DNA from: Fidelibacterota bacterium
GTDB lineage: Bacteria > Fidelibacterota > Marinisomatia > Marinisomatales > Marinisomataceae
Assembly: GCA_018672235.1 (NCBI GenBank)
Contig: JABHGE010000031.1
Span: 1 to 52,763 of the forward strand
DNA length: 52,763 nucleotides
Direction: 5' to 3'
Shown: positions 37,585 to 46,620 of the stretch, one piece after another
Numbering within the stretch: position 1 is the stretch's first letter
Layout: every line of letters begins with the position of its first letter
The notes under the pieces: generated by a model
Told to the model about the DNA's origin: nothing
The model's database searches: none
Seen by the model: the letters and a program-made list of their open reading frames with translations, nothing else
Position numbers and translations under genes: made by a program

Positions 37585-38118
37585 TTAATTTTTATTTATA
37601 AATAAGTAATCTTCCCAGCCTAAATTTTTATCTTTTATAAACTGATTAAAGTACATGAATCTATTAGGTTTTTTTGGTTGTTTCATCAATTTCATATTTG
37701 CTTCTTTTGGAGTTCTACTTCCCTTCCTTGCATTACAAGGAGAGCATGCTACAATTAAATTTTCCCATGTATCAGACCCACCTTTGTACTTTGGAATAAT
37801 ATGATCTACAGTTAAATCTGATTTTAGTCCACAATACTGGCAACATGCATTATCTCTAAGCAATAAATTTTTTTTATTTAAAACTACGTCAAGACTGTTG
37901 TGAGATACGTAGGTTTTTAGCTTTACTACGCTAGGTACTTTTATTCGTGTCGAAGGAGAATATACATATTGATCATAATTTGTTAGTACGTCAATTTTAT
38001 TTAAAAAATATAAACATAAAGCGCGCTTAGAAGAACATACTGCAAGTGGTAAATAGCTAGCATTCAATACCAGAGTAACATTATTTTCGATATTTGAATT
38101 TGGGATATTGTATTTCAT
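37585..38118 (-). CDS. HNH endonuclease (McrA-like family)
   Basis: LVLNASYLP, RD..CQYCG, TVDHIIP..GG..WENL..C..CN..KG. Confidence 0.88.
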   Translation of the reverse strand: MKYNIPNSNIENNVTLVLNASYLPLAVCSSKRALCLYFLNKIDVLTNYDQYVYSPSTRIKVPSVVKLKTYVSHNSLDVVLNKKNLLLRDNACCQYCGLKSDLTVDHIIPKYKGGSDTWENLIVACSPCNARKGSRTPKEANMKLMKQPKKPNRFMYFNQFIKDKNLGWEDYLFINKN

Positions 38119-38356: not shown

Positions 38357-40408
38357 ATGAAATTTTATATTTTATTATCAACAATACTAATATCTAACCT
38401 TTTTTCACAAACCTTAACTGGTCTTGTTATTGATACCAATGGTCATCCCCTATCGTACGTAGTGGTAAGAGAGCTAAATAATGATGCGCAAAATGATAAT
38501 TGGACTACCACATCAGATGATGGTTCTTTTAGAATTGAAATTAGTGTTAGTTCAAAAATTAGATTTGAAAGAATCGGATTTGAAAGCAATACAGTATACT
38601 TAGATAACTATGATTCTCAAGTATTTACACTATTAAGCAAAAATGTAAATCTCAGAGAAGTGAATGTATATGGAAAAAGCAATTCAAGATATTTAAAAAA
38701 TAAAAGCTTAAATAATAATTTAGGTTCTTTTTCAAATAATGGCTCTTTATCTCAATTGCCTTCACTAGAAATAAGAACTTATGGCGGATATGCAGGCGTA
38801 ACCTCGGCTTCTTTTGACGGAGGATTTGCTCGTCATACCAAAGTATTGTTTAATGGCGTTGACTTAACTGATGCTCAAAATGGCCAAGTAGATTTATCTA
38901 TTTTTCCATCATTCGTACTAAGCTCATTAAACTATAGATTAAATTCAGGTACAACGCATGGATCTGGATCTATTGATGGGACTCTAGATATAAATACTAA
39001 AAATAGTCCAAATAGAGTTTTTTACAGTTCTGGTGACTATGGATTTAATCAATATGGTGCAACATATTCAATGGGTAGAGAAAACTCAAAAAGAATTATC
39101 ACAATAGGTAAAACTAGCTATGATGGAGACTATCAATATAAGGATTCTATCACGGGTCTGAATAGTAACAGAGAAAATAATTCTTTAGATCAATTTTTTC
39201 TTGCAATGAATAGAGAATTTCTTGTTAGAGAAGATTTAATTATTAATATCAACTCTTTAACAACAACAAATACTAGAGGAGCTGCAGGCAGTACCAACTT
39301 TCCATCTAAACTTGCAACAAGAACTGATGAATATGAACTATATGCGCTTTCATTTATGAAATTTTTTGTAGATAGTTCTCTAAAATTTTATATTAATCGC
39401 TCAACTAGCAATCAAGTATTTGATGATCCCGATGAATCTTACCCAATATTTAGTGAACATGATTTAGAGTTATCATCAATGGGAGTTGACTTCAAAAAAC
39501 AATTAAATACTATATTAAATTATAAACTATCAGCTCAACAAAAATCTGATAGAATTAGTAGCACTGACTTAAGTAATCAAGAGATTAGTTCTAGTTCTAT
39601 ATCATTTCTACTGAACTATCTTAATAATGATAAAGATTTTAAAATATCTCCATCAATGCGATATGATAAGCAATCTGAAAATGATAAATTATCCTATAAT
39701 GTTAGCTTCGAATCAATCGATCAGCTAATAAAAGGTGATCAATCTTATTTTGACTTTGGATTAGATATAGGTTCATCTTTTCAATTTCCAACTATGAATG
39801 ACTTATATTGGCCTGATGGATTATACAGTGTTGGAAATCTAGACTTGAAACCAGAGGAAAGTGATTATCTATCTTTTAATATGACGAGTAACTCTACTTT
39901 TGGAAAAGTTACTGTAACTGCAACCATGAAAGATTATGAAAATCTAATCTTATGGCAACCTGATGCATCATATAAATATCAACCAATTAATGTCTCTTCT
40001 GCATCACGAATAACATATAATATTAATTATCTTAAAGAATTTTCAAATAGTCAATTACAGGTATCATACAATATCTATGATAGTGAAGATGATGATTTAA
40101 AAAAGAAACTACTATATGTTCCAGAATATTCAGCAAATGTATTTTTAGCTCATAATTTGAATCAGGATATGAATATAGTATTTAATTATAAATATATAGG
40201 GAAACGTATTCTGCAGTATGGCTCTGATTTGAGCTCTCAAACCGATGGAGATGGTTATGGGATCTTAGACTTGAGCATATCTAAAGATTTCAATGATTTA
40301 AAAGCAAGCTTAGTGGTTGACAATATTCTTGATAAAGCATTTGAATCTACCCTAGGCTACCCTGAACCAGGGAGAAGCATTAAGATGGTAGTAGAATATA
40401 AAATTTAA
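38357..40408 (+). CDS. btuB: TonB-dependent receptor, probable cobalamin transporter
   Basis: Signal peptide, N-terminal extension, plug motif YGG..HTKVLFNGV..QNGQVDLS, GNLDLKPE, C-terminal NILD..YPEPGR; under a B12 riboswitch; GGAGG RBS. Confidence 0.8.
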   Translation: MKFYILLSTILISNLFSQTLTGLVIDTNGHPLSYVVVRELNNDAQNDNWTTTSDDGSFRIEISVSSKIRFERIGFESNTVYLDNYDSQVFTLLSKNVNLREVNVYGKSNSRYLKNKSLNNNLGSFSNNGSLSQLPSLEIRTYGGYAGVTSASFDGGFARHTKVLFNGVDLTDAQNGQVDLSIFPSFVLSSLNYRLNSGTTHGSGSIDGTLDINTKNSPNRVFYSSGDYGFNQYGATYSMGRENSKRIITIGKTSYDGDYQYKDSITGLNSNRENNSLDQFFLAMNREFLVREDLIININSLTTTNTRGAAGSTNFPSKLATRTDEYELYALSFMKFFVDSSLKFYINRSTSNQVFDDPDESYPIFSEHDLELSSMGVDFKKQLNTILNYKLSAQQKSDRISSTDLSNQEISSSSISFLLNYLNNDKDFKISPSMRYDKQSENDKLSYNVSFESIDQLIKGDQSYFDFGLDIGSSFQFPTMNDLYWPDGLYSVGNLDLKPEESDYLSFNMTSNSTFGKVTVTATMKDYENLILWQPDASYKYQPINVSSASRITYNINYLKEFSNSQLQVSYNIYDSEDDDLKKKLLYVPEYSANVFLAHNLNQDMNIVFNYKYIGKRILQYGSDLSSQTDGDGYGILDLSISKDFNDLKASLVVDNILDKAFESTLGYPEPGRSIKMVVEYKI

Positions 40409-42006
40409 TCGTCAAATTCCCAGATAATACCAAAAGATAGGAGACTGTTCATTGGATTGAATAGGTCAGAATTATTCAAAGAATAGTTTCCATCGATTGG
40501 CAGTCGATCAAGTGCATTCTTTAGTCGAATAGTTAAGATAACATCTGCAATAGATACATTTAAGTCTAATCCAACATTATAGCTCTCATCGTAAGATATA
40601 TGATTATGAGATATTGGAATATTTCTAAAGTAATCAAAAGAATATCCGGAATCATTTTTAGATAAATATCTCAAAGATAGCTTTCCATCTATGCCAAGCT
40701 TTTGATTAACAAATGATGTCTTGAAATAATAATTTAAATCTAAGATATCAGATCTATTAGAGCTAATTAAACTGTCATAGAAATTATGATAATACACAAT
40801 ATCAACCCTACTGTCTTTGAATGGTAGTATAACTTTTGTTTTCAGCGAAAGCATATCATCTGAGAAAGAAAAATATCCATCGAAGTCAGCTATTTCTATA
40901 TCTGATAAGTATTGTGCTTGAAGATTATTAGCTCTTACAAAATTCAGATCTAAATCAACAACAAATAAGCGATAGCTTAAAATCAATGAATCCCAATTCT
41001 GTACCTTTTCATGATCTTTGGGGTGATATAAATATTCTTCAAATTGTTGAGACCTATCAAATAAAACCATATTAGACTTATTCTTTCTAGACATATATAG
41101 CCCAAGTGTACCAAATTTAGCTTCATAGCTAATATTAGGAACTACTTTATCTGCTATGTAATCAATACCGTATGTAAAATCTCCAAAACTAAATTCATTG
41201 CTATTAGATAGTTGTAATATATTTCTACTATACCCCTCTTGGTTGTTATGATCAAAATAATAGGCGTTATCAATAAAAGATGTTATTGATACATTTCTGC
41301 CATTTTTGGCACTAACATTGAATCGATTTCTATCAATATCAACTTCATGATTAATATTATATTGGGTAATAACTCTATCGGTATATTTATTAATATGATT
41401 CAGTTCAAAATTATATGACCAACTATCTACATTAAGAATACTTCCTGCTGTAAATGACAAGAAATCAGAGAACTCTTTATTGGTAATACCTTCTAAGATT
41501 ACATCTGAATTCACATCAAAAAAAAATTTTGAATCTTCTCTGAAATACCCTACAGAAAAATATAAATTACCATTGGATAGATTAGTCGTATAATCGACCT
41601 TATAAAATAAACTCAGCGGACTACTATCTTGATCAGCAAACTCAGCATAAGTTCCAAAAAAACTCTTCTTCATTGCCGTAAATTGGAGATCACTTTTTTC
41701 GGAATGCTTTTTTAGTCCAATATTTAATTTGTTAAAACCATAATCTCCAAATTCATACTGGAACTTACTTTTGACATAAACAGAATCAGTCGGCATATTA
41801 TCGAAATTGAAAGAAGAGAATTTGTTCTTAAAATATGTAGACGATCTATCGATAAATAAATCATCAAATTTTTTATCGTTATTCCAAACAACCTGATTAT
41901 TATCTAAAACAACTCCAAATTGATCTGATAGATCATAGCTAATATGGCTTTGTCCAAATAATATAGATATAGTTAAAAAATAAACTGCACTAAACTTATT
42001 AGTCAT
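40405..42006 (-). CDS. Hypothetical exported protein, probable outer-membrane beta-barrel
   Basis: Signal peptide, aromatic-rich alternating beta segments, C-terminus SFGIIWEFDD. Confidence 0.55.
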   Translation of the reverse strand: MTNKFSAVYFLTISILFGQSHISYDLSDQFGVVLDNNQVVWNNDKKFDDLFIDRSSTYFKNKFSSFNFDNMPTDSVYVKSKFQYEFGDYGFNKLNIGLKKHSEKSDLQFTAMKKSFFGTYAEFADQDSSPLSLFYKVDYTTNLSNGNLYFSVGYFREDSKFFFDVNSDVILEGITNKEFSDFLSFTAGSILNVDSWSYNFELNHINKYTDRVITQYNINHEVDIDRNRFNVSAKNGRNVSITSFIDNAYYFDHNNQEGYSRNILQLSNSNEFSFGDFTYGIDYIADKVVPNISYEAKFGTLGLYMSRKNKSNMVLFDRSQQFEEYLYHPKDHEKVQNWDSLILSYRLFVVDLDLNFVRANNLQAQYLSDIEIADFDGYFSFSDDMLSLKTKVILPFKDSRVDIVYYHNFYDSLISSNRSDILDLNYYFKTSFVNQKLGIDGKLSLRYLSKNDSGYSFDYFRNIPISHNHISYDESYNVGLDLNVSIADVILTIRLKNALDRLPIDGNYSLNNSDLFNPMNSLLSFGIIWEFDD

Positions 42007-42878
42007 TTTTTGCTCATAACATTAACCTGTGAATCCATATAGTTAATTGTATGCAATAAAACGGCTTCTAAAGTTTGAGGTTCAACAGGGCTTTGCCATT
42101 CTTTTCTACCTTGGTAAGATAGGATTAGATGCTCTAATCTTACTTTATCTTGATCTGGAAAGCGTTTTACTTTTCTGATATAGTTATTAACAACGTCTCT
42201 TGAAAGTATAGCATTTCCTACCAATCGTCTTTCATTTGATTTTACTTGAGAAAATCCCATATTAATTGAATACAATTTTCCAATTTGATGCAAGCATGCT
42301 CCTGTTAAAAGTAAGTCTGTATCTACTTTATAATGCTTGCCTAAAATTTTAGAAATTTCAATTAATGAAACTGTTTGCTCAATTAATCCACTTTGATAAT
42401 TATATTGATATGAAATACTAGCGGGATAAATCTGAAATTTCTGTTTATGATCTACTAATATTTTCTTTACTAATTTTTTTAAGTGAATTTTAGATATCAG
42501 ATCAATCTCTTTGTTCAGATCAATCCATAACTGCTTTGCATTTTTTCTTGAACTTGGTATTAGGTCCGATGAACTAAATCCATATTTTGCATATTTCTCA
42601 ATAGATGCTCTTGTGATATTCTTTATTTTAATAAAAATACTATCACCGTACTTATAAGTACTTCCCTTTATAGCAACAGGATTACCTATATCAAATTTTT
42701 TTGATAGCGATTCGACATTGTCCCAAATACGAGCCCTTATTATACCCGATTTATCTTGTAACAATAAATCAAGATATATAGAGCCGTCTTTTTTTCTTCT
42801 GGATTTTTTTTCTACACAAAGATAGAAGCCTTGGAGCTTCATTCCAGAAACTAGATTATCAATAAGAATAGATTTCAT
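42003..42878 (-). CDS. YhaM/CBF1-like OB-fold plus HD-domain protein with degenerate metal ligands
   Basis: OB fold (YLDLLLQDKSGIIRARIWD) and HD scaffold (DLLLTGACLHQIGK, HLILSYQG, EW.SP..P...EA.LLH), with His/Asp ligands substituted. Confidence 0.85.
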   Translation of the reverse strand: MKSILIDNLVSGMKLQGFYLCVEKKSRRKKDGSIYLDLLLQDKSGIIRARIWDNVESLSKKFDIGNPVAIKGSTYKYGDSIFIKIKNITRASIEKYAKYGFSSSDLIPSSRKNAKQLWIDLNKEIDLISKIHLKKLVKKILVDHKQKFQIYPASISYQYNYQSGLIEQTVSLIEISKILGKHYKVDTDLLLTGACLHQIGKLYSINMGFSQVKSNERRLVGNAILSRDVVNNYIRKVKRFPDQDKVRLEHLILSYQGRKEWQSPVEPQTLEAVLLHTINYMDSQVNVMSKK

Positions 42879-42885
42879 TTAAAAG

Positions 42886-43350
42886 CTAATTTTTAGAATG
42901 GTTACACTCAGAGCCGGTACAAACAGCAGATAGCTGATGGACTCTTTTTGTGACTTTAAGATTTAGATTTTTAGCAATCTTATCTTCAATTTTGGATATA
43001 CTATTATCAAAGAACTCAAAAATTTCTCCACAATCTTGACATACAATATGGTCATGTTGTGGGCTAATAGATTTTTTATTATGCTCATATAAAAATCTAC
43101 CGTCATCTAAAGTAAGTTTTTTTAATAAATCATGTTTTACAAAAACATCAATCGTTCTATATAAGGTTGCTCTTGAAACATTAATTTTTTTCTTTTGAAG
43201 ACTTCCCAGAATAGTCTCAATATCTCTATGCTTATTTGTTCCAGATAGTTCATCCCAAATGTCTAAGCGTTGCTTTGTCGCTCTTAAACCTTCAGCTTTC
43301 AACACTGACTCAACCTCTACATGAAATCTACATGGTATTAAATTTTCCAT
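42886..43350 (-). CDS. fur: Fur family transcriptional regulator
   Basis: GLRATKQR, VSRATLYRT, HDHIVCQDCG, C-terminal Cys pair. Metal specificity unknown. Confidence 0.85.
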   Translation of the reverse strand: MENLIPCRFHVEVESVLKAEGLRATKQRLDIWDELSGTNKHRDIETILGSLQKKKINVSRATLYRTIDVFVKHDLLKKLTLDDGRFLYEHNKKSISPQHDHIVCQDCGEIFEFFDNSISKIEDKIAKNLNLKVTKRVHQLSAVCTGSECNHSKN

Positions 43351-43362
43351 AATTCAAATTAC

Positions 43363-45528
43363 CTAATCTATCTTTTTTAGTCTAGCATATTTAACAATAA
43401 GCTTTTTTCTTAATCCACCAGAAAATTCAACGCCAACTTTCTGATTTTCTCCAGTCCCATTTAATACTAAAATTGTACCAACTCCAAAAAGATTATGTTG
43501 GACTTCATCGCCGACCTTAAAGTCGTCAAACTCTGTTACTGTTCTAGATATTTGAATTGTCTTCTTATTTCCAGAACGTACAATTCTTTTTGTATAAACT
43601 GTTTTGTATGGCTTAACCTTGATTACATCTTTGTCAATTTCATTTAAAAACTCAGATTGCACAAAAGATGATGTATTTAGTGCGCCAAATTTTCTTCTAT
43701 ATTTAGCATTCAATAAATACACTCTTTCCATCGCTCTTGTTACTGCAACATAAAATAGCCTTCTCTCTTCTTCTAACTGATCTATATCATCATCCATACG
43801 TATCAATGGAAATAAGCCTTGCTCAAGACCAGTAACAAATACTGTAGAAAATTCTAACCCTTTCGATCCATGAATAGTCATAAGTGTTACAGAATTTTTC
43901 TTATCATCCCAATCATCTAAATCGGTATAAAGTGATATTTCTTGTAAAAACTCTTTTAGACTACCATTTGATTTTTCTGCAAAACGATCAATACTTAATT
44001 TTAATTCTTGAATATTATTATAGCGATCTTGTTCTGCAGGATTATTTTTATAGTAATTTTCGATATTAAATTCTTCCAATAAAGTGCGTAAAAGTTCTTT
44101 GCAGTCTAATGTATCTAATAGATCATGAAATTTATTAATTGATAGGTAAAAATTTTCAATTGAATCTTGTTGTTTCCCTCTCAATTTTATATCTCTACAA
44201 GACTTTAAGCTGTCAAATAATGAAATTCCTTTTTCTAGGCCTAAATCATTGAAAATTTTAATAGATTTTTCGCCAATCCCTCTAACTGGAAAATTGATAA
44301 TTCTTTTCAATGCAATATTATCATTTGGATTACATACTAAGGTTAGATAAGCAAGTACATCCTTTACTTCTTTTCTATCATAAAATTTAGTACCTCCTAC
44401 AATATTATATGGAAGGCCTTCTCTCATCATTGTCTGTTCAAGCATTCTAGATTGTGCATTGGTGCGATATAATACAGCAAAGTCTTTAAATGCGCCTTTA
44501 TTGATTTTGATTTCTGTTTTTATAGAATCGCATATTGCATTAGCCTCATCTTCATCGCTTCCAGTAGAAATAAGTGAAATTTTTTCTCCCAAACCTTTTG
44601 TAGCAACTAATTTCTTCTCGGCTCTATTAGTATTATTAGAAACTACAGACCAGGCTCCATCAAGGATGCGTTGAGTAGATCTATAATTTTTCTCTAACTT
44701 GACTTCGATAGCTTTTGGAAACGTATCTTTAAAGTTTGTAAGAATATTATCAATATTTGCTCCTCTCCATCCATAAATAGATTGATCATCATCGCCTACA
44801 ACTGTGATATTTTGATGTTTACCGCCTAACAGACTGATTAAGTCAAATTGAGGAGAATTAGTATCTTGAAATTCGTCTACTAATATATATTGCCATGATT
44901 TTTGATATTGCTTCAATAAGGAATCATTTTCTTTGAATAACTTAATAGGCATTCCGATTAAATCGTTAAAGTCTACAGCATTATTTGATAGCAATAATTC
45001 TGAATATCTTTTATATACTTCTGAAATTTTTTCATCTTCAAAGCTATTTGCTTTTGATTCTACTTCTTTTACTGTCATTGAAGCATTTTTGAATTTATCA
45101 AGCTGCGAACGTAGGAAATTGATATTCAATTCTTTGAATTCTGCAATATTCAACTGATCTACTACTTCTTTTAGCAAAGATTTTTGATCAGAGACATCGT
45201 AGATAGTAAAATCGCTATTATACTTATCATTTAAATAGCTAATATGTTTTCTTAAAATTCTCGCTCCAATTGAATGGAATGTTCCAACATTTACACCATC
45301 ACAATTGATACTATCCTTAATACGTTCTTTCATTTCAGCTGCAGCTTTATTAGTGAATGTCAGCGCTAAAATCTGATTGGGATGATAAATTTTATCCTTA
45401 ATCAAATGCCATATTTTATAAGTTAAAACTCGTGTCTTTCCACTTCCAGCGCCTGCAAAAACAAGTACGGGGTGCTTAACAGTCTTTACTGCTTTAAGCT
45501 GTTGAGTATTTAAGTCAGTTAATTTCAT
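43363..45528 (-). CDS. pcrA: UvrD/PcrA superfamily I DNA helicase
   Basis: AGAGSGKT, TFTNKAA, VDEFQDT, NYRST, YRTNAQSR, KGLEF, EERRLFYVAVTRA, C-terminal Tudor-like domain. Confidence 0.95.
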   Translation of the reverse strand: MKLTDLNTQQLKAVKTVKHPVLVFAGAGSGKTRVLTYKIWHLIKDKIYHPNQILALTFTNKAAAEMKERIKDSINCDGVNVGTFHSIGARILRKHISYLNDKYNSDFTIYDVSDQKSLLKEVVDQLNIAEFKELNINFLRSQLDKFKNASMTVKEVESKANSFEDEKISEVYKRYSELLLSNNAVDFNDLIGMPIKLFKENDSLLKQYQKSWQYILVDEFQDTNSPQFDLISLLGGKHQNITVVGDDDQSIYGWRGANIDNILTNFKDTFPKAIEVKLEKNYRSTQRILDGAWSVVSNNTNRAEKKLVATKGLGEKISLISTGSDEDEANAICDSIKTEIKINKGAFKDFAVLYRTNAQSRMLEQTMMREGLPYNIVGGTKFYDRKEVKDVLAYLTLVCNPNDNIALKRIINFPVRGIGEKSIKIFNDLGLEKGISLFDSLKSCRDIKLRGKQQDSIENFYLSINKFHDLLDTLDCKELLRTLLEEFNIENYYKNNPAEQDRYNNIQELKLSIDRFAEKSNGSLKEFLQEISLYTDLDDWDDKKNSVTLMTIHGSKGLEFSTVFVTGLEQGLFPLIRMDDDIDQLEEERRLFYVAVTRAMERVYLLNAKYRRKFGALNTSSFVQSEFLNEIDKDVIKVKPYKTVYTKRIVRSGNKKTIQISRTVTEFDDFKVGDEVQHNLFGVGTILVLNGTGENQKVGVEFSGGLRKKLIVKYARLKKID

Positions 45529-46526
45529 CTATTTTCTCTTTTATACTGTTTGTATAGCTTCTTTGCTTTCAAATGATCTTGTTGATTTGTGGTAAACACA
45601 TGAGAGCCATCACCTTGTGCTACAAAATATAAATAATCTGTACTAGCAGGATACAATGCTGCTCTAATTGATTCTAACCCAGGATTATTAATAGGCCCAG
45701 GTGGTAACCCGTAATTCAAATATGTATTATAAGGAGATACGCGTTTTAGGTCTCTAAGACTTAATGCTTTTGGATTGCCCGGTATTAAATATTGTATAGT
45801 TGGATCTGCTTGTAATTTCATTCTTTTTTTTAGTCGATTGTGATAGACAGAAGATATAATAGCTCTCTCTCTATCTAGCAAAGCTTCTCCTTCTATAATC
45901 GACGCCAAAGTTACAACCTCATGTACCGTAAATCCTAGTTCATTTGTGCGTTCTATAAATGTTTTATTAAAGTTCTTCCAAAACTCATCAATCATCGTGA
46001 CTAAAACCTTACGACTGCTTGTTCCTTCAAAAAAATAATATGTATCTGGAAAAAGATATCCTTCCAAAGAAGATGCCTTAATATCAAATTCTTTTATAAA
46101 TATCAGATCTTTGAATAGTACACTATAATCATAAGATGCATCAAATAGCATATTTGCATTTAGGAATATTTGCTCAGATGACGATCCCTCTGGAATCGTT
46201 AATTTTAGCCTAATTGGACCATCCTTAAAAATTGTATCAATAACATTTCTATTGCTTATTTTACCTTGAACAACAAAAGTTCCAACTGGAATTTTATTAG
46301 ATAGTCCGAGGAAATAAACTCTATACTTAAAAAAAGATTTGTTATAAATAATATCTTTTTCATATAGAAGATTTGTTACTTTATTAAGCGACATTCCTTT
46401 TTCAATCACAAAAATTGTTTTATCTATATTTCTGTTTGAAGTAAAAAATATACTTGCTCCAACAAGACATATTGTTAAAAAAAGACCAAATACTGAATCG
46501 CGATTATTATTATTATTGGCTGCCAT
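45525..46526 (-). CDS. mltG: Endolytic transglycosylase MltG
   Basis: TIPEG, LEGYLFPDTY, LASIIEGE, LQADPT, SPYNTY..GLPPGPI. Start ATG 46526 preferred. Confidence 0.93.
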   Translation of the reverse strand: MAANNNNNRDSVFGLFLTICLVGASIFFTSNRNIDKTIFVIEKGMSLNKVTNLLYEKDIIYNKSFFKYRVYFLGLSNKIPVGTFVVQGKISNRNVIDTIFKDGPIRLKLTIPEGSSSEQIFLNANMLFDASYDYSVLFKDLIFIKEFDIKASSLEGYLFPDTYYFFEGTSSRKVLVTMIDEFWKNFNKTFIERTNELGFTVHEVVTLASIIEGEALLDRERAIISSVYHNRLKKRMKLQADPTIQYLIPGNPKALSLRDLKRVSPYNTYLNYGLPPGPINNPGLESIRAALYPASTDYLYFVAQGDGSHVFTTNQQDHLKAKKLYKQYKRENR

Positions 46527-46620
46527 AAAGAAGCAGAAATTAATTCTTTTATAGGCTGAAATCAATTGTAAGGAATTATATTTTTTGGAAACTAGCTAGA
46601 AGAAATTTAACTTAAGGTAA

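Follow-up and report, generated by a model that had tools for sequence, protein, structure and literature searches.

A gene on the minus strand of a 52,763-nucleotide (nt) stretch of DNA from a Fidelibacterota bacterium (contig JABHGE010000031.1 of assembly GCA_018672235.1; the whole stretch is hereafter called the window) encodes a homologue of YhaM/Cbf1, an exonuclease family with a Mn2+-dependent 3'-5' activity on single-stranded RNA (ssRNA) and DNA (ssDNA). Our analysis indicates that this single orthologue has probably been converted into a pseudoenzyme, that is, a non-catalytic binder of single-stranded nucleic acids. We favour this reading because the metal ligands are gone and their replacements are fixed, the fold is intact, the gene is under purifying selection, no intact paralogue was found, and published YhaM mutants support it. 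The original prediction had described a catalytically dead nucleic-acid-binding protein. What it said of ligand loss and of the scaffold was upheld, fixation and purifying selection were confirmed as well, and the deadness and the binding themselves are the best inference from the sequence and from the published mutants. The features of the gene are the following:

42003..42878, minus strand: YhaM-like gene, 291 codons plus stop; OB fold, then an HD-fold domain without metal ligands
42609..42839, minus strand: OB-fold domain, approximately residues 14-90 (Pfam PF01336, model strands, Foldseek)
42723..42725, minus strand: codon of W52 (W51 of B. subtilis), within the OB domain
42648..42650, minus strand: codon of Y77 (Y76 of B. 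subtilis), within the OB domain
42006..42428, minus strand: HD-fold domain, residues 151-291, with the former active site remodelled (Pfam HD, Foldseek)
42402..42407, minus strand: Q158-Y159, replacing the family H-H of 'NHH' (alignment, codons checked)
42375..42377, minus strand: Q168, replacing ligand H163 of B. subtilis YhaM (alignment, codons checked)
42285..42290, minus strand: H197-Q198, replacing the eponymous H-D (H193/D194); H197 is the sole ligand kept
42213..42215, minus strand: N222, replacing the family-invariant His of 'LLGH' (alignment, codons checked)
42111..42116, minus strand: Y255-Q256, replacing H250/H251 (alignment, codons checked)
42042..42044, minus strand: N279, replacing ligand D274 (alignment, codons checked)

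Homology to the YhaM family extended over the entire protein. The HMMER alignments with B. subtilis YhaM (PDB 9h3f; E 2.9e-28, query residues 6-290) and with Cbf1/YhaM (PDB 9o7t; E 1.5e-24) were both end to end, and every motif that the original prediction had compared with the YhaM pattern appears in them. The NCBIfam YhaM model NF010007 gave 126.4 bits over residues 8-290, below its equivalog cut-off of 460; since the intact Marinimicrobia YhaM genes that were scored also fell below this value (158-205 bits), the cut-off is fitted to Firmicutes. The Pfam matches were weaker: the OB family (PF01336) matched residues 27-89 with an E-value of 6e-6 and 26.5 bits, against a gathering score of 27, and HD reached 19.4 bits, under its gathering score of 22.

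The fold was examined with an AlphaFold2 model of the 291-residue protein, computed from a 113-row alignment, which was confident (pLDDT 93.9, pTM 0.88). Its best PDB match in Foldseek was chain A of 9h3f (E 6.7e-12, TM 0.80 on the target, rmsd 2.3 A over 183 columns), followed by OB folds of the RPA/SSB type. The strands of the OB domain span residues 14-90 in the model, and W52 and Y77 align with W51 and Y76 of B. subtilis YhaM; the OB fold with its conserved Trp and aromatic nucleic-acid-binding residues is thus present, as is, according to the model, the C-terminal HD-domain fold. Together with the family-wide residues described below, these results bear out the earlier claim that the scaffold motifs and the OB fold are intact. 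The window protein therefore has the same OB-then-HD architecture as the Mn2+-dependent exonucleases of 9h3f and 9o7t, and shares with B. subtilis YhaM the HD fold, the OB Trp/Tyr pair and the family-wide scaffold residues.

The metal site, in contrast to the fold, is not retained. In B. subtilis YhaM two metal ions are held by H163, H193, D194, H250, H251 and D274, as seen by cryo-electron microscopy, and the activity is strictly Mn2+-dependent (PMC12107432). Through the HMMER alignment these ligands correspond to Q168, H197, Q198, Y255, Q256 and N279, respectively, so that one of the six survives (H197) and the extended H...HD...HH...D motif is lost. Further His residues are also replaced, the 'NHH' pair by Q158 and Y159 and the His of 'LLGH' by N222, which brings the number of changed positions to eight with respect to B. 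subtilis. The protein thus combines the loss of catalytic and ligand residues with a retained fold.

How unusual these replacements are can be judged from a family alignment of 144 full-length representatives, taken from the best 150 of 5,486 matches after six rows shorter than 270 residues were dropped. His was found at position 158 in 138 of these representatives, at 159 in 127, at 168 in 140, at 197 in 139, at 222 in 139 and at 255 in 136, and Asp at position 198 in 140. Two positions were more permissive: 256 was His in 100 and Gln in 33, and 279 was Asp in 124 and Glu in 13. As Q256 is already found in intact Marinimicrobia enzymes, it is ancestral in this group and not a loss of the window's genus, and at position 158 the genus has His in 17 and Gln in 11 of its 28 genes. 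Six changes are fixed in the genus, namely H159Y, H168Q, D198Q, H222N, H255Y and D279N (with Ser at 279 in one congener). The original prediction had counted seven His/Asp positions turned into Gln, Asn or Tyr; the replacement itself holds, and the count has to be corrected to eight against B. subtilis, six of them fixed.

All 28 full-length genes of the genus have an intact reading frame, and all carry Y159, Q168, H197, Q198, N222, Y255 and Q256; N279 is present in 27 of them and Ser in the remaining one. A C-terminal tail of about 25-30 residues, present in intact relatives, is gone from every genus gene. The ratio of nonsynonymous to synonymous substitutions (dN/dS), estimated by the Nei-Gojobori method from the 115 pairs with 0.05<dS<1.5 (378 pairs in total, 342 with a finite dS), had a median of 0.070 and a range of 0.012-0.231, and was lowest in the HD part (0.058, versus 0.090 in the OB part and 0.105 in the middle). 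By the same measure it was 0.03-0.12 in genera with intact ligands and 0.03-0.11 in other degenerate genera. Selection on the gene of this genus is therefore strongly purifying, as strong as on the intact orthologues, with no sign of relaxed constraint, and the gene has been retained in the long term. These results agree with the view, put forward from the single sequence, that the pattern is not one of random pseudogene decay; they also answer the checks proposed with it, fixation across orthologues and a dN/dS below 1, and run opposite to the outcome that was named as contrary to it, close orthologues with HD ligands and a copy under relaxed selection.

We then compared, at all 291 positions, the 28 rows of the genus with 134 canonical representatives and with 23 other Marinimicrobia genes, requiring a conservation of at least 85% in both sets. 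The sole positions conserved in both sets yet switched in the genus were 159, 168, 198, 222, 255 and 279; position 96, which emerged as a seventh, was discarded as a gap artefact. The same scan identified 19 other family-wide residues that the genus keeps (L40, D42, G45, W52, P152, G164, Y183, G193, L196, H197, G200, K201, G221, H250, G257, P267, E271, A272 and D282), and no new acidic residue among the genus-specific switches. The site is moreover unusually constant: at a divergence of up to 42%, seven of its nine positions do not vary within the genus, compared with 113 of all 291 (39%; binomial tail 0.02). Two further clades of similar divergence (minimum pairwise identity 0.53-0.58 in the three) were compared in this way. 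The degenerate clade of family f3 has none of the nine site positions invariant, versus 91 of 291 overall, and the clade of families f4 and f8-f11 has eight of nine, versus 90 of 291, with variation only at the former Asp. The difference between the genus and f3 implies that the pocket of the genus was remodelled and then frozen, and is not an eroding one.

The assembly of the window (0.90 Mb, 93% complete) contains one YhaM-like gene, and the search for an intact YhaM paralogue that had been recommended found none at this completeness. A second match to the family, in a 701-residue open reading frame (ORF) on contig C4 (16.5 bits, OB part only), was taken as an unrelated OB-fold protein. A YhaM-like gene was present in 275 of the 301 genomes of the phylum that were scanned and in 28 of the 29 other genomes of the genus, once as a fragment at a contig end; the sole miss in the genus is an assembly 81% complete. 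Genomes of the genus measure 0.7-1.1 Mb, and those of the other families of the order about 1.4-3.8 Mb. Identity to the window protein is 59-96% within the genus and 36-44% in all the other families of the order, and the gene tree groups the genus as a separate clade with 100% support, on a stem of 0.91-0.95 substitutions per site and apart from the other degenerate groups.

Single copy, synteny and gene tree agree in making the gene orthologous to intact YhaM. The intact orthologues of sister families (e.g. in genomes G075 and G188), with which it shares both the tree and the gene order mltG-pcrA-fur-...-yhaM-omp at 36-44% identity, keep the ligands H, H, HD, H, H(Q) and D and the C-terminal tail, unlike the window protein, and are about 60% identical to one another, whereas the genus stands on a stem of 0.9 substitutions per site. 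In one assembly of the genus (G249, contig C30, 4887-5516) we observed a second, partial copy covering residues 82-291 with 90% identity, which probably reflects strain heterogeneity of the metagenome-assembled genome (MAG) rather than a paralogue.

Ligand loss extends beyond this genus. We fetched 146 YhaM-like genes and scored the five ancestral ligand positions 168, 197, 198, 255 and 279. At least one ligand was replaced in the 28 genomes of the genus (28/28), in 34 of 99 genomes from the rest of its order, and in 5 of 19 genomes beyond the order, the latter being hand-picked and hence a biased sample. When the 43 genera of the order outside the window's genus were considered, 23 had all their genes intact, 19 had all of them changed and one was mixed. 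On a maximum-likelihood tree built with the ligand columns omitted, from a quick search without bootstraps and with several long branches flagged, at least 10 state changes are needed, six of which are forced by branches with SH-aLRT values of at least 95. Ligand loss is thus recurrent, with at least 6-10 independent events needed in the order to account for these sequences.

The forms that the loss takes are diverse. Written as the residues at positions 159, 168, 197, 198, 222, 255 and 279, the pattern is YHH(G/S/A)HHD across families f4 and f8-f11, Y(S/C)HDHHH in f13 and f16, YQFDHQT in one genus of f5, and HHNNHDD and YQIKQYY in f3. The OB residues D42, G45 and W52 are kept in all 146 genes. 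That ligands were lost many times in the order suggests that the selected function of YhaM there needs no catalysis.

Two of the degenerate groups deserve mention on their own. Families f4, f8, f9, f10 and f11 (e.g. loci L058, L148-L153 and L155) form a deep clade that has all the ligands but the HD Asp, in whose place stands Gly, Ser or Ala; position 159 is Tyr, and this 'HG' form may represent a separate long-lived functional state, half-dead or mononuclear. Much more eroded YhaM-like genes, with about 28% identity, no recognisable HD ligands and no C-terminal tail but with the OB Trp kept, occur in small-genome genera of a neighbouring order (G220, G300, G272 and G286 of f17 and G299 of f20; loci L060, L059, L034, L038 and L039). 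Their products are 275-280 residues long in G220, G300 and G299, and the copies of G272 and G286 are cut at contig ends; in G220 and G300, whose flanks were fetched, the eroded gene still lies directly after mltG-pcrA-fur.

With five ligand positions neutralised, the window protein would be expected to hold no Mn2+ pair and hence to carry out no hydrolysis by the YhaM mechanism. It would still bind 3' single-stranded DNA or RNA through its OB fold, probably as a dimer rather than as the metal-dependent hexamer, and a buried polar network of Gln, Asn and Tyr probably substitutes for the metals in holding the helical bundle together. The C-terminal tail is missing from the most degenerate lineages, and its loss there might have accompanied the abandonment of the hexamer. 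The retained job would then be binding and not cutting, either by holding or shielding 3' ends or by working alongside the helicase PcrA. Gene context, with pcrA as a conserved neighbour, hints at work on DNA ends. Cbf1 itself was reportedly discovered through its binding to a plasmid replication enhancer, and the replication of that plasmid is said to need PcrA. On the RNA side, the genome has PNPase (952 bits), and no RNB-family enzyme (RNase R/II) was found in it at 93% completeness, which makes a role in shielding or presenting 3' ends conceivable; with a catalytically dead YhaM, 3'-5' RNA decay may rest largely on PNPase.

The behaviour of the natural protein is best modelled, among what is available, by analogy with the engineered dead variants of Firmicutes YhaM. 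The B. subtilis H193A/D194A mutant is inactive, is nearly all dimer instead of hexamer and binds ssDNA more strongly, whereas Y76A binds ssDNA far more weakly, W51A and Y76A both being described as having reduced DNA binding (PMC12107432). In S. aureus, YhaM D193A is catalytically inactive and proficient in RNA binding, and H192A/D193A is completely inactive (PMC11347170). In these variants as in the window protein the HD pair is destroyed, and the variants still bind nucleic acid according to those reports. They differ in being laboratory alanine mutants of two residues, deleterious on overproduction and non-complementing, whereas the natural protein carries a full set of near-isosteric replacements under selection. 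With respect to YhaM/Cbf1 as characterised, then, the window protein comes from a marine phylum of Gram-negative type, has five of the six metal ligands and two further His replaced, lacks the tail of about 25-30 residues, and presumably lacks the activity.

YhaM/Cbf1 acts in RNA trimming, in the processing of competence DNA and in crRNA maturation, and to our knowledge has been studied so far only as a Mn2+-dependent nuclease of Firmicutes. Our literature searches turned up neither a naturally inactive YhaM nor any account of YhaM in Marinimicrobia, although subscription journals and supplements may hold more. HD folds without metal ligands that serve binding or regulation include the pseudo-hydrolase domain of RelA and HDOD. 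These, like the inactive HD-GYP domains, belong to different HD subfamilies and to signalling proteins, as opposed to the OB-fold nuclease described here; a maintained pseudoenzyme form of the YhaM family would thus be new, dead HD domains being known in other subfamilies. The likeness to the inactive HD-GYP domains lies in an HD fold without metal ligands that is used for binding or regulation: they have lost most metal-binding residues and act through c-di-GMP binding or protein contacts (preprint 10.1101/2021.11.05.467447).

In this genus, with some of the smallest genomes of the phylum, the sole YhaM copy is kept under strong selection with its metal site removed residue by residue, and independent loss of one or more ligands is seen in about one third of the related genomes surveyed. 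This amounts to a natural experiment that would point to a valuable binding or scaffolding role of YhaM apart from cutting, and the natural 'dead' and 'half-dead' variants provide a ready set for probing it. It also calls for caution in annotation: close homologues are named by their sources as proteins of 'Candidatus Neomarinimicrobiota bacterium' MAGs, and public records label such genes '3'-5' exoribonuclease' or 'HD domain-containing protein'.

Several points weigh against a dead binder. The loss of activity and of metal binding is deduced from the protein sequence and from the Firmicutes mutants only. H197, K201, H250 and D282 are kept and invariant, and the new Tyr, Gln and Asn residues are invariant too; a frozen site of this kind is explained as well by continued binding of some ligand, or even by catalysis, as by a purely structural network. 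At high concentration, S. aureus D193A retained some RNA degradation (PMC11347170), which implies that one or a few changes need not abolish activity. According to the same report, the growth delay of S. aureus was not rescued by dead YhaM mutants; as the Firmicutes phenotype needs catalysis, a non-catalytic core function is without precedent in the family. The sign of expression is faint as well. Short contigs 100% identical to the window were found in marine RNA libraries (two runs of one study and one run of another), covering 41947-42213, 42100-42281, 42344-42502 and 42706-42917, and give a weak hint that the gene is expressed, DNA carry-over being possible. Contigs of this kind do not demonstrate a transcript, and the stretches of the gene that they leave uncovered carry no information.

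A wider and distinctly less likely version of the argument can be advanced tentatively. Throughout the order, the selected function of YhaM might need no hydrolysis, catalysis having been dropped at least 6-10 times, and in the window's genus the site might have been rebuilt as a frozen, metal-free polar pocket with a job of its own, in which H197, K201, H250 and D282 were kept and Y159, Q168, Q198, N222, Y255 and N279 were gained. This job could be a metal-free grip on a 3' end or a nucleotide, or a metal-independent acid-base chemistry on RNA. If this were true, a role without catalysis, so far overlooked, would be a general property of YhaM proteins, perhaps exercised alongside the PcrA helicase.

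It is rather unlikely that the protein is still an enzyme whose chemistry was rebuilt, either as a metal-independent acid-base site or as a weak Mg2+/Ca2+ site with oxygen ligands, with H197, K201, H250, D282 and the newly acquired Tyr, Gln and Asn forming a site for the cleavage of RNA or DNA or for nucleotide hydrolysis. Such a site would explain why, at sequence divergences reaching 42%, seven of the nine positions of the old site do not vary, against a background of 39%, why the HD part has the lowest dN/dS, and why the genus has retained the HD-pair His, the HDxGK Lys that contacts phosphate and another His conserved family-wide; in the f3 clade that lost ligands, in contrast, the site positions drift. 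However, a structural hydrogen-bond network explains this conservation equally well, five of the six ligand positions hold neutral residues, and no acidic residue was gained among the switches. Nor do we know of any HD-fold hydrolase that works without metal. In favour of such a site, catalytic residues have migrated in some pseudoenzymes (review PMC10211241); against it, the change of Asp to Ala alone inactivates S. aureus YhaM (PMC11347170).

By analogy with inactive HD-GYP or EAL domains that bind c-di-GMP, the dead HD pocket could instead be a receptor for a nucleotide or a small phosphate compound that tunes nucleic-acid binding by the OB fold. The site is frozen and polar, as such a pocket might be, and there is a precedent in the HD superfamily in the inactive HD-GYP domains (preprint 10.1101/2021.11.05.467447). 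Nevertheless, HD enzymes hold phosphates through their metals, whose removal usually weakens ligand binding, and the gene context suggests no ligand; we consider this proposal quite unlikely.

A different explanation turns on the neighbours of the gene, which are the following:

42886..43350, minus strand: Fur-family regulator gene (Pfam FUR, 98 bits), 7 nt upstream of the YhaM-like gene
43363..45528, minus strand: pcrA/uvrD-type helicase gene, conserved upstream of yhaM in the mltG-pcrA-fur-(feoB)-yhaM block
45525..46565, minus strand: mltG/yceG, preceding pcrA
40405..42006, minus strand: 533-residue ORF of no Pfam family, a conserved downstream neighbour of the YhaM-like gene

The ORF coordinates confirm the layout originally described, a 291-codon frame 7 nt after a Fur-family gene and downstream of pcrA; the spacer reads TTAAAAG on the plus strand, and the stop of the YhaM-like gene overlaps the ATG of the 533-residue ORF (ATGA). 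The original prediction had named a metal-sparing adaptation as conceivable; in the form considered here, losing the ligands would spare metal and be linked in function to the Fur regulator next door. In favour of this idea, YhaM needs Mn2+, the affected lineages are marine, with the most thorough losses in the smallest genomes, and no Nramp transporter was found in any of the 24 genus genomes searched.

The history of the locus argues otherwise. All 28 loci of the genus show the order pcrA-fur-yhaM, and of 20 relatives examined over 5-kb flanks 14 have pcrA and fur upstream of yhaM, 10 of these 14 with intact ligands. The gene feoB stands between fur and yhaM in 9 of the 20 (Pfam FeoB_N, 166 bits), and the S component of an ECF transporter lies between yhaM and the homologue of the 533-residue ORF in 15. 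Neither feoB nor the ECF S-component gene occurs in the window, and a search of the 93%-complete genome for FeoB gave no more than a GTPase-domain match in a 442-residue ORF. Comparison of these loci indicates that the ancestral block was mltG-pcrA-fur-feoB-yhaM-ecfS-omp and that the genus deleted feoB, which is why fur now lies 7 nt from yhaM; FeoB, a likely target of the Fur-family regulator, may have disappeared while the regulator stayed. In relatives with genomes of about 2 Mb, feoB encodes 713 residues and lies directly downstream of fur (locus L043, 6625..8766).

The adjacency to fur is thus older than the ligand loss and is seen with intact enzymes in at least 10 genomes, and fur's original neighbour was feoB; it therefore has no bearing on metals and YhaM, and a functional meaning of it is not supported. 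The absence of Nramp is equally uninformative. In a census limited to this one Mn importer (PF01566), 19 of the 141 order genomes covered had a match over the cut-off, none of the 24 genus genomes being among them, and families with intact YhaM lack it just as much (0/9 in f2, 0/4 in f7 and 3/23 in f5). Moreover, three other HD-domain proteins of the window's genome score normally. Taken together, these data make a metal-sparing adaptation tied to Fur highly unlikely. As for a decaying gene without function, the lost catalytic residues, the lost C-terminal tail and the long stem branch might suggest it, but it is scarcely credible and was rejected in view of the fixation and intact frames (28/28), a dN/dS of 0.070 equal to that of intact orthologues (0.03-0.12 across their genera), the retention of the gene in genomes of 0.7-1.1 Mb and the confident model.

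Further downstream, the 533-residue ORF converges on a plus-strand gene for a 683-residue protein (38357..40408), which has a CarboxypepD_reg match and a weak Plug match and resembles a TonB-dependent receptor. Both ORFs are kept beside yhaM across the order, with 22-29% identity, and both may encode outer-membrane proteins. Beyond them lies a gene for a 177-residue HNH endonuclease (37585..38118, minus strand; Pfam HNH, 60.5 bits), which is also found near the yhaM block in at least two relatives (L056 and L058).

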